Source: Psammoneis japonica (lineage: Eukaryota). From it: a DNA stretch of 64,000 nucleotides. The stretch covers positions 538,979-602,978 of the forward strand of contig QPGO01000008.1 of assembly GCA_008632985.1 (NCBI GenBank). The letters run 5' to 3'. The number at the start of each line of letters is the position of its first letter. Positions within the stretch are counted from its first letter, which is position 1. The notes under the pieces are model-generated. The model was not told the origin of the DNA and searched no databases. It saw only the letters and a list, made by a program, of their open reading frames with translations. Shown here piece after piece: positions 3,942 to 23,958 of the stretch. Position numbers and translations under genes: made by a program.

Positions 3942-6926
3942 ATGTGAGCTTGGGACACGGCGAATTTGGCTGTGCTGCCTGCATCGCTCTTGGGAACAAA
4001 GTAAATAAACACATCTATAGAGCACGATAAAGTGAAAATATGTTGGCGTGGCTTTGGGGAAAGTGATTGATTGTAGTCTTTATCGTGAGGGCAAACTTGT
4101 ACGAGTGCGAGGCAGGACAAACAGGATTTTCACGCAGTCCGCAGCAGAGAGAAAGGGCCCATCACATGCTGGCAACTGCCAAGAGTTGAACGTGTGGTTG
4201 GTTGCCAATGTTTGTGGCTTCTCAAGCAAGCTGCAAGAAACCAAGAGCCGCAAGCCAAGCAAGTGGTTAAATGCCATCAGTTTGGCAAAGGATGCAACGG
4301 CACTGCTGCACAGCCAAGAACAGGTGCAGGCCAGGCCAGGAATTGGGGTGATGCAGCTTCATCACCCAACACAGTTGGTCAGCCCCCAGCCATGCAATGG
4401 CAATGACCATGGCTTGGCAGGCAACATCAGCCATGATCAATGCACCATCACCCCATTTCTGCCACAGAAGATTGTCATTTGGTCCCAGCTTGAACTGCCT
4501 TTGCAGGCTTGATCCCCCCATTGGATTGCCAATGCCAGCATCACAGGGAGGGCACTCAACAGTGTGTTTGCCCCATTTGACCATTTGAGAGACCATTGCT
4601 CCATGCTTCATTGTCTCCAAAGGAAGTGTTTGCCCACATGACTGAAGGTCACACAAAGCAATGGCCACAGCAAGTGAGTGCCAACCCAGCAAATTGGCGC
4701 CAACTGGGGAGTGGTTGGGCAAGCCTTGCCAGCCTCCTGACAAGAAGCTCATCCACTGTTTCCAGGAGAGATGGCAGCAAATCATGATTTGCCAACAGGA
4801 GCAGGACACCCACTTGCAGCACCACAGGTCTGGTTGGTCATTCAGGCATTTTGGATGACAAATTGGCTGCAGAACAGCAGCAACAATGTCTCAGTGCACA
4901 CACCCATCAACAAACTGTCAATGCCAGAAAAAGACCCCAGCACAGACCCAAGGCAAATCAGGAGCAAAAAAGCTTGCACAGATGTGTCAAGCACATGAAG
5001 CTCATCACCTCCTGATGCTGTGGGTTTTGGCATTGCCCCCCCCCCCCCCCCCAAGGGCAGAGATGCTCAGTTCTTGGTGCTGGTGGCGACAGCCCCCAGT
5101 CACTGCAAAGCCAATGTTGGCATTGAAAGTTTGCCAGACACTGCCGTTGCATCAATGTTGCCAATGGGGTTGGGTGGACCATTTCTCTTTGGCCTCACTG
5201 CCCCAGAACAGGCCCACCAAGTTGTTCAATGTTCCTGCATTCATGGCAGCAATGACCACCCAAACACCTCTCTGATGCTGCAACTTTGGAAGCCCCAGAT
5301 GACCTTCACATGGCCACCACAAATGACACTCTGTGAAGTGCCAAATTGGCACATTGTGCAGTTTTTGTGACTGCCCTTGGGGTTGACCACCCAGTTGCCC
5401 AGTGTTTTGGAGAAATGATCAGCAAATGTCCAGACACAGACACCAAAAACTTGGTTGGCATTAAAGTGGAGCTCCTGCATTGGTTGCACCAGCAGCAGAC
5501 CACCTTTCTCAACCCTGTCATTTGATGACAATGACCCCTCCATCCACGTCAAAGACAACAATGAGGAGGTCAAGAAGAAGAGGCTGCAGCAATTTTGATG
5601 ATTTGTTTGCAGTCAGAGGGGCCTTGCTTCCTTGCAGGAAACACTGCTCACAACCTGATGATGATCCCTGCATCTGCATGGGAACGACACTGTCACTGAG
5701 ATTTAAGACCACCAAGTGGCTTCAAAGGTGGCATGGGGCACCTGTGCATGGACCTGCAGAACATTGTCACAACACCTGTGGCAGCCCCAGAGCCACACCC
5801 ATGCACTGCCATTGCATGAGGTCATGTGGGCACCAACATCAAATCCGGCAGCAGAAAGTGGACTTTGACAATGGCCCCCATTGACTTGGGTCCACCTCAA
5901 CCCTGATGAAGCCCACTTGCTGGGTGTTGCCATGGTGACATGCTTCTTGCCTGGTGTGAACCAACCCCTGTTGCCATGGGGCTGCCAACGCATCTCCTCA
6001 TGGATTGGGTGAACTCGTGAGCCCCAAAATTTGGTGATGCCATGCCAAAACAACATCAGACCTGGCTGGTGCTTTTGCAAATGATGCTCCACCTTGTCCC
6101 CAGCACCTTTTGAGTGTTGGCTTTCCAGCTCTCATTTTGACATCAGTCACCAACATGGCAAGTCTTCTGCCAGAACTTTTGCGGCATTGCTGTCTTGTCT
6201 AGAGCTGCTGCTGCCAAGCTCAAGTTGCCAGCCATCAGACCACTTCTCAAAGCTGTCTGCCATGTCACAGAGGACCTCCCCATCACTGACCCAGAGCTGG
6301 AGTCATTGCCCTGCTGGGAAGCCCCATTTGCAGATGCTGTGCTGTCATCAAGGATGCCCTGCAGCTGGTCCTTAAAAGGTGAATCTAAAAAGGTGCTGGG
6401 TTTCAACTCTTTTTTAACTCTTTGTTTGCCACAGCAACATGATGTGCACAATTTTTTTGCAAGAGGCAAAACATGGCCACCATCCACAGCACAACTGAGT
6501 GGCATGTTGCCATTCAGAGTGGTTGCAGCAGCAGACACTTCCCCCATGCCATGCAGGGGCAGGGGTGATTGTCAAAACACAGCAAGGTGCATTGTGGTGG
6601 CTTGGTTTGGTTTGTTGTTGTGCTGGCATTTTTTTTCTTGTCTTTGTTGCTCACCTGCTGTCACAACAGCATTTCTTGCATCACAGCAGGTGCAACCAAC
6701 CACGACCAACAGAATCAGTGCTGTTGTTCTTGACATCCACAGGATGGCATCTGGTGGAAGGTCAAACAAATGGGTGAGCATGTGTCACAACAATGTTGTT
6801 CTGTGGCACTGGACTGTCCTTTTTTGCCTTTCATGTTCCCTCAGCTGACCCTTGCTTTTTGTGCTGCATTTTTTTGCTTTTCAGACCATCTTTTTTGGCA
6901 CTGGCAACATGAACATCAACAATGTC

Positions 6927-23620: not shown

Positions 23621-23958
23621 CAAACCCCTCATCAACAACAAAGTTTCTATCCGATCAATGAAGCACAAGCGCTCATCATGCGGTAGACCCCAGTCTACGG
23701 TACGGTAAGGATAGATGTCGACCTTTCGTTCGTCGTCCGTCGTCCGTCGACCGACAGCGCGGCGATCGCCGCGAGGTTCGAGGTGCGCAGAGCGGCAGAG
23801 CGGGCGATGACAATGATCGGAGAGCGGAGAGGAAAGCAGCAACAATACAACAAACGCACAGTCTTTCCTTTGTTTCGACCCACAAGGTCTCTTTCTACTC
23901 TTTACGTTTTTGATATTTGTCCTGTTGCACTGTTTTGATTTTGATCTACAATAAAGTA

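Follow-up and report, generated by a model that had tools for sequence, protein, structure and literature searches.

What can empty tens of kilobases of a chromosome of one dinucleotide and yet leave the base composition as it was? The question is raised by a stretch of 64,000 nucleotides from Psammoneis japonica (positions 538,979 to 602,978 of contig QPGO01000008.1, assembly GCA_008632985.1), which was analysed as a whole and is called the window below. Depletion of TpA (TA) in it is clustered in three or more discrete domains and is coupled to a gain of TG and CA. A sequence-only reading of this DNA had proposed a candidate undescribed defence system that turns TA into TG or CA on either strand of repeats, together with decay of CG. 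We consider it probable, at roughly three chances in four, that these are domains of a pennate-diatom chromosome under active, locally targeted conversion of A:T to G:C at 5'-TpA-3', with the same signature as has been reported from Bigelowiella natans (Mettrop et al., bioRxiv 10.64898/2026.01.13.699255). In the process that we propose either strand would be struck at random, each TA ending as TG or CA, and the whole domain would be acted on together with its contents, here a transposon with terminal inverted repeats (TIRs), unclassifiable old repeats and a native pair of host genes.

Loss of TA and CG from discrete domains

The ratio of observed to expected (o/e) TA, CG, TG and CA was followed in sliding 1-kb windows across the 64 kb. 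For TA the ratio was 0.00-0.09 in 18 of these (5-15, 17-18, 21-23, 51-55 and 63-64 kb), 0.15-0.29 in transition windows and in those between 15 and 21 kb, and 0.42-0.92 in gene windows. Most of the 18 TA-poorest windows also had a CG ratio of 0.00-0.19 and TG and CA ratios of 1.6-2.3. Domains of this kind, which we call old (Table 1), were pooled to 19,084 bp and compared with the host DNA, that is the flanking genes, of the same window. TA makes up 0.23% of all dinucleotides in the old domains and 3.79% in the host genes, and CG 0.64% and 5.77%. In absolute terms, 44 TA were observed where 723 would be expected at host density (binomial P about 1e-248), and 122 CG are left. The near-vanishing of both palindromic steps and the dominance of TG and CA that the sequence-only reading had described are therefore real features of the composition.

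Losses and gains are balanced. TA, CG, TG and CA together account for 23.9% of dinucleotides, in host DNA and old domains alike, and the old domains have lost 8.69% of their dinucleotides as TA and CG and gained 8.64% as TG and CA. AA, TT and AT are not depleted (AA 8.84% in old domains versus 7.72% in host DNA, TT 7.30% versus 7.34%). The GC content of the old domains (0.488) hardly differs from that of host DNA (0.487), and the expectation that the two losses cancel each other in GC content is borne out.

Table 1. Domains, element and genes of the TA-depleted DNA in the window
Feature	Position	Strand	Basis
Old domain, TA and CG almost gone, mostly single-copy, without recognisable protein domain	4140..15104		composition, profile search, word depth
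Young block, TA depleted (0.94%), CG near normal (5.24%)	15105..21322		composition
Multi-copy DNA element bounded by 39-bp TIRs	15462..17661		TIRs, word depth
Weakly sulfotransferase-like host-type gene, reading frame open, conserved Tyr changed to His/Cys	17786..18757	+	38 homologues
Family-2 glycosyltransferase, host-type, now a pseudogene, conserved Tyr changed to Cys/His	18883..20843	+	PF00535, E 1.5e-11
Old domain with diverged copies of a repeat shared with 54694-55626	21323..23640		composition, repeat comparison
Old domain with internal diverged direct repeat (52757-53018, 54333-54592)	50521..55177		composition, repeat comparison
Old domain running off the end of the window	62564..64000		4 TA and 23 CG in 62500-64000

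The domain edges are sharp and extend over no more than a few hundred bases. On the left TA and CG remain dense as far as about 4100-4300; on the right, where the edge lies at about 23300-23650, they are dense again from about 23650, and the span of 4140-23640 that had been proposed for the first block is correct. In 4140-15000 (10.9 kb) just 20 TA and 57 CG are found, and 4.3-15.1 kb holds 1225 TG and 1243 CA. Copy number was judged from word depth in a coded public sequencing run, X1 (library type not on record), from which contigs were built with 31-letter words at a depth of about 65x. Over the first old domain the depth is about 65-130 and rises locally at 6.7-7.3 kb and 10.7-11.3 kb; at a likeness of at least 90%, most of the DNA of 4-15 kb is single-copy. 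Across both strands of 4140-15000 TAA and TAG together occur 36 times and TGA 499 times, and all six frames contain open reading frames (ORFs) of 120-280 amino acids that lack Tyr and have Cys and His in excess. The same domain has a GA/GAGA-rich simple repeat in three copies about 220-340 bp apart (10327-10375, 10549-10623 and 10886-10934). As a control, 1209 1-kb windows from 80 metagenome loci, 16 of them diatom-like, were scanned, and none had TA o/e below 0.25 with TG/CA above 1.4.

The block between 15.1 and 21.3 kb shows one loss without the other. It retains 58 TA where 235 are expected (P about 1e-44) and 325 CG where 358 are expected (5.24% versus 5.77% in the host), so that about 75% of the TA and about 9% of the CG have been lost. 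Because of this difference, the loss of TA is separable from CpG decay and faster, as the sequence-only reading had held for the first of these two points. If both processes began together in this block, TA loss would be about 15-fold faster per site. Just to the left of the TIR element, in a CpG-rich stretch of this block (15337-15397), six surviving TA lie within 60 bp; five of the six have G at the +1 position on at least one strand (three CTAG, one CTAC, one GTAG), and the remaining one is GTAC.

The CpG loss of the older domains would be the second and slower process, most simply deamination of 5-methylcytosine (5mC) in methylated, silenced DNA. It is established that transposable elements (TEs) of diatoms are CG-methylated in heterochromatin, as far as the accessible text of the source describes it (PMC12344493), and such methylation suffices to explain the slower loss of CpG. 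The old domains share with ordinary 5mC decay the change of CG to TG or CA, and both mismatches between the TIRs and many differences between repeat copies are of the same type. Removal of TA, however, is outside the reach of 5mC decay, which is here the slower of the two processes.

Direction and context of the change

The direction of the change can be read from two genes within the young block. The sulfotransferase-like gene has homologues whose named members are all from diatoms (PF13469 is found in three of the 38), and the glycosyltransferase is 58-60% identical to Bacillariaceae/Nitzschia proteins. In 13 of the 16 diatom-like metagenome loci (L002-L005, L007 and L009-L016) the two genes stand side by side, with the order and strand that they have here. 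Since the homologues are from diatoms and the pair is syntenic in these loci, the pair is native and not foreign DNA. They resemble a gene pair that is conserved among diatoms and may serve a sulfated polysaccharide. The statement that adjacent genes use TA normally thus fails for 17.8-20.8 kb, where a host-type gene pair inside the block is hypermutated.

Alignment columns with Tyr in at least 70% of the homologues were taken as conserved-Tyr columns. In the sulfotransferase-like gene ten such columns hold four His, three Cys and three Tyr, and 139 of 167 other conserved columns are kept; in the glycosyltransferase thirteen columns hold eight Cys, four His and one Tyr, and 169 of 189 others are kept. 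Pooled over both genes, the 23 columns comprise 11 Cys (TGY), 8 His (CAY) and 4 Tyr, while other conserved columns are kept in 308 of 356 cases (Fisher P 2e-12). At the DNA level, the glycosyltransferase coding sequence (CDS) contains 0.99% TA as against 2.64-5.68% in 14 orthologous CDS, and its CG content is the same. Codon alignments took in 10 environmental diatom orthologues of the glycosyltransferase and 7 of the sulfotransferase-like gene. At the 29 sites where at least 60% of the orthologues have TA, the window has TG at 13, CA at 10, TA at 4 and GA at 2 (P 5e-9). Retention of the other 15 dinucleotides is 42-86%, for instance 69% for orthologue-majority AA as against 14% for TA; it is lowest for AC and AT, where the same events show up through the step that overlaps. 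With 19 of 23 Tyr columns changed to Cys or His and 23 of 29 majority TA sites changed to TG or CA, the proposal of A:T to G:C change at TpA on either strand is upheld.

Reading frames stay open under such mutation, because TA to TG or CA cannot create a stop codon. Accordingly the sulfotransferase-like ORF is intact though 7 of its 10 conserved Tyr are lost. In the glycosyltransferase the frame is in addition shifted once, near 19330-19407, and interrupted by a TGA at 19650-19652. With a depth of 65 the gene pair counts as single-copy at a likeness of at least 90%, and the process is therefore not visibly repeat-dependent, although more diverged copies would escape detection at that level.

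The TIR element gives the same direction from a different kind of comparison. Its TIRs (15462-15500 and 17623-17661) differ by two mismatches only, both of CG versus TG/CA, and its word depth of 950-2700, compared with 65 elsewhere, makes it multi-copy. No clear target-site duplication was found around it, and a search of the metagenome contigs with the TIR pattern gave no match. For this and the following comparison with X1, 40 of 74 differences between the window and X1 are listed. Among the 27 listed for the element, 19 have CA or TG in the window where the other copies, mostly at majority depth, have TA, and 3 have TG or CA in the window where the others have CG.

Diverged repeats point the same way. 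They join 21.3-22.4 kb to 54.7-55.6 kb, and 52.76-53.02 kb to 54.33-54.59 kb. When the bases are recoded as purine or pyrimidine, identity rises from 68% to 83-84% in the first repeat and from 76% to 95% in the second, and therefore nearly all of the divergence consists of transitions. The second repeat, which is the best pair, has 51 transitions and 5 transversions, with 15 double differences of CA versus TG. In all, the paralogue pairs have 37 steps with CA in one copy and TG in the other, and for such a step to arise, an ancestral TA or CG must have been converted independently in the two copies. A copy at the domain edge (55280-55626) keeps TA in a ratio of 5:0 and CG in a ratio of 11:1 where the inner copy within 21323-23640 has CA or TG.

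The claim that these are transposon domains or repeats needs amendment. One multi-copy TIR element and a few diverged repeats are present, but most of 4-15 kb is single-copy DNA and no TE or viral domain came to light. The Pfam profile search covered 179 stop-to-stop ORFs of at least 75 amino acids and six read-through frames of 50.5-55.4 kb, and none of these contained a transposon, viral or reverse transcriptase domain. Weak matches to zf-CCHC, IcmQ and an integrin domain were all below the cut-off and were rejected; the zf-CCHC match may be a by-product of the excess of Cys and His.

Both strands are struck equally and independently. The 42 polarised sites divide into 22 TG and 20 CA, and strand-coordinated runs of TG or CA were not found in any domain (runs-test z 0-1). 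In the TIR element the 19 polarised sites fall into 7 runs, against an expectation of about 10.5, by a hand count on few sites. The TA steps that survive reveal that the sequence preference extends beyond TpA. Among 102 such steps ATAC/GTAT or ATAT does not occur, although these contexts make up 23% in host DNA (P 2e-12), while TTAA accounts for 16 (3% in host DNA) and CTAA/TTAG for 23 (7.4% in host DNA).

Candidate mechanisms and rival explanations

How could TA be destroyed in this manner? The chemistry may be enzymatic deamination of adenine in DNA. An enzyme of the cytidine deaminase (CDA) fold, ADAT2/TadA-like or other, would convert adenine in a T-A context to hypoxanthine, which is read as G, and the targeting cue would be silent chromatin or methylation. 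Deamination by such an enzyme is our leading guess for the chemistry, and we hold it tentatively.

The main rival places the lesion on the other base of the step. 5-Hydroxymethyl-uracil and 5-formyl-uracil mispair with G, and a dioxygenase of the TET/JBP type that oxidises T at TpA to these bases in silent chromatin would give T to C changes, which at a palindromic site mirror those from A to G. A palindromic TpA with random choice of strand fits either chemistry, and the weak +1 preference described below gives no special support to a TadA-like enzyme. The authors of the B. natans study, as far as the accessible text of the preprint goes, favour deamination of A, as a proposal (10.64898/2026.01.13.699255). 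We regard thymine oxidation as unlikely, though it is the rival that survives best.

It might also be asked whether one enzyme attacks both palindromic steps, as a dual A/C deaminase would. TA and CG vanish together in the old domains and their combined loss equals the gain of TG and CA; moreover, ADAT2 of amphioxus and of trypanosomes is cited in the accessible part of the same preprint as deaminating both A and C (10.64898/2026.01.13.699255). However, the 75% loss of TA between 15.1 and 21.3 kb stands against a loss of about 9% of CG, so the two rates are an order of magnitude apart, and ordinary 5mC decay is sufficient for the CG of CG-methylated diatom TEs (PMC12344493, accessible text). 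A single dual deaminase is accordingly improbable, and two processes of different speed remain the preferred account.

A further concern is whether the bases themselves are real, since modified bases at TpA and CpG in heterochromatin might be mis-called in sequencing or assembly. X1 holds 86% of the sampled words of 14001-24000, and its contigs reproduce the TA- and CG-poor sequence almost letter for letter at about 65x, with no difference over 4001-5051, four over 10935-15488 and seven over 17636-23535. Eleven differences at full depth in single-copy DNA (11944-22830) are listed: eight are CG versus TG/CA, two are TA versus TG (18478 and 18711, TA in the window and TG in X1) and one is a transversion. 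That 10 of these 11 fall on CpG or TpA steps speaks for an artefact; these differences could be alleles, ongoing mutation or miscalls related to methylation or modified bases. The agreement of the contigs speaks against an artefact, as do the frameshift and stop codon of the glycosyltransferase, which are expected of a truly dead gene, and the independent choices between CA and TG in paralogues. We judge an artefact to be very improbable.

Two other routes to A:T to G:C transitions are scarcely credible. ADAR-like A-to-I editing of retroelement double-stranded RNA (dsRNA), fixed by reverse transcription, would agree with the preference of ADARs for U on the 5' side of the edited A that the accessible preprint text mentions (10.64898/2026.01.13.699255), but the DNA affected includes a DNA-type TIR element, a syntenic gene pair in its place and intergenic DNA, the genomic edges are sharp, and the searched ORFs and frames yielded no reverse transcriptase. 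Error-prone repair of the Pol-eta type (A to G at WA), recruited to methylated DNA, had been put forward among the candidate mechanisms and would yield such transitions, but WA includes AA, and it does not fit because neither AA nor TT is depleted and AA survives far better than TA in the comparison with orthologues.

Finally, the domains might be foreign or TE DNA in which TA and CG were avoided from the start, by native composition or selection. This view has the composition itself in its favour and nothing further, and it is excluded because orthologues, other TIR copies and the edge repeat copy carry TA or CG where the window has TG or CA, and because the affected genes are native diatom genes. 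The observations that could have overturned the sequence-only reading, such as equally TA-poor TIR copies elsewhere, were looked for as well, and the outcome favours a real process from TA to TG or CA.

Several points weigh against the reading that we prefer. No comparable domain was found in the 16 diatom-like metagenome loci, which may mean that the process is restricted to a lineage or merely that such domains are absent from gene-rich contigs. The ancestral TA density of the old domains is assumed to have equalled that of host DNA, and the 15-fold ratio of rates assumes equal starting times. X1 may be the sample from which the window was assembled, so its base calls may not be independent. 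No viral genes were found, so the diatom domains offer no clear counterpart to the targeting of foreign DNA that has been proposed for B. natans. At +1 of the strand that was hit, C occurs in 20 of the 42 polarised sites, and on the other strand in 14 of 42, which lends no clear support to a TadA-like preference for T-A-C. Both the deaminase and the targeting cue are conjecture.

Relation to known systems, genomic setting and significance

The process is not as novel as had been claimed. In mutation-accumulation lines of B. natans, hypermutation of TpA to TpG or CpA strikes integrated DNA of nucleocytoplasmic large DNA viruses (NCLDV) and virophages, according to the accessible text of the preprint (10.64898/2026.01.13.699255). 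Two silent integrated viral regions there mutate about 1000-fold faster than the remaining genome, and 230 of 231 de novo mutations in them are A to G or T to C, all 230 on TpA. The B. natans genome further has 124 clusters of windows poor in TpA and rich in CpA and TpG, with much unannotatable sequence, as well as a class of CDS with a TpA frequency of 0.0018, and an ADAT2-like deaminase is put forward as a proposal. The main text of this preprint mentions neither CpG nor diatoms. The likeness to the diatom domains is close: in both cases transitions are almost exclusively A:T to G:C at TpA, yield both TpG and CpA and are confined to particular regions, and the frequency of TpA under saturation is about 0.002 there and 0.0023 in the old domains. 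Unlike the chlorarachniophyte, the host here is a diatom and thus a stramenopile, a TIR element and a native gene pair are among the targets, and TA loss is near-total over tens of kilobases and is accompanied by CpG decay. For Phaeodactylum tricornutum, mutation accumulation gave a GC to AT bias, and the accessible text of that study does not mention TpA (PMC6604790). A literature search, with subscription journals outside its scope, found no report of TpA hypermutation in a diatom. It seems, then, that the same process has been described once, very recently, in another lineage of the Stramenopiles, Alveolata and Rhizaria (SAR) group, and that only its occurrence in a diatom is new.

Other systems are related more loosely. 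Repeat-induced point mutation (RIP) of fungi changes CpA to TpA on both strands, makes the DNA AT-rich and can kill genes in or beside its target. Like RIP, the diatom process inactivates silenced or invasive DNA for good by mutation, through transitions that are specific to a sequence context and fall on both strands. However, TpA is destroyed here (0.23% versus 3.79%) and not produced, so the description as the opposite of RIP was apt; GC is unchanged or slightly raised (0.488 versus 0.487), and single-copy genes are struck, with no dependence on duplication evident at a likeness of at least 90%. ADAR acts on dsRNA, and APOBEC3 on single-stranded replication intermediates. With these the process shares showers of deaminase-type, context-dependent transitions against selfish nucleic acids. 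In contrast to both, the diatom process alters chromosomal DNA where it resides, non-retro elements and a host gene pair among it, and strand-coordinated runs are missing.

The DNA around the domains is ordinary host DNA in its gene content. The ORFs that flank them are long, have few introns and code for ordinary eukaryotic proteins, namely a proteasome subunit, an S10 carboxypeptidase, Rft1, a DOT1-like protein and a PHD/Tudor protein; the best named relatives of the carboxypeptidase, at 61-70% identity, are from raphid pennate diatoms (Nitzschia, Fistulifera), which assigns the window to a diatom and not to Bigelowiella. The gene-rich stretch includes two genes with a link to chromatin, one for a PHD/Tudor/AT-hook protein (33778-37257, plus strand) and one for a DOT1-like histone methyltransferase (49212-50240, minus strand). 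About 300 bp separate the end of the latter from the start of the hypermutated domain at 50.5 kb, a closeness that is probably coincidental. Between the carboxypeptidase and Rft1 genes there is an intergenic tandem duplication of 74 bp with 98.6% identity (39088-39229). Scans of the window for tRNA genes and Rfam families gave no matches.

What does this mean for the diatom genome? One possibility, bolder than the chemistry discussed above and held a little less firmly, is a chromatin-guided DNA base-editing defence, an inverse RIP, that is common to diatoms and chlorarachniophytes. It would erase the palindromic TpA within short evolutionary time from any silenced DNA, including native genes engulfed by a spreading domain, and would have gone unnoticed because CpG decay cancels its effect on GC. 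The order of loss, with ATA/TAT first and TTAA and CTAA/TTAG last, could then be the fingerprint of one conserved enzyme. Whatever the chemistry, the mechanism is constrained by the observations: the process is separable from CpG decay and faster, works domain-wide, chooses the strand at random and has a preference that goes beyond TpA.

There are practical consequences for the annotation of such genomes. GC scans and RIP indices miss TpA hypermutation. Long stop-poor ORFs in such DNA are artefacts, and gene finders would over-call them. Recoding to purine and pyrimidine recovers repeats that are otherwise hidden.

To our knowledge a mutation bias from GC to AT is near-universal. Targeted A:T to G:C hypermutation of resident DNA opposes this bias and is known from a single preprint of 2026, as far as its accessible text goes. 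By this route native genes can be killed while their frames stay open. The same saturated signature in a diatom suggests a widespread and overlooked mutator, serving genome defence or linked to heterochromatin, in an ecologically major group.

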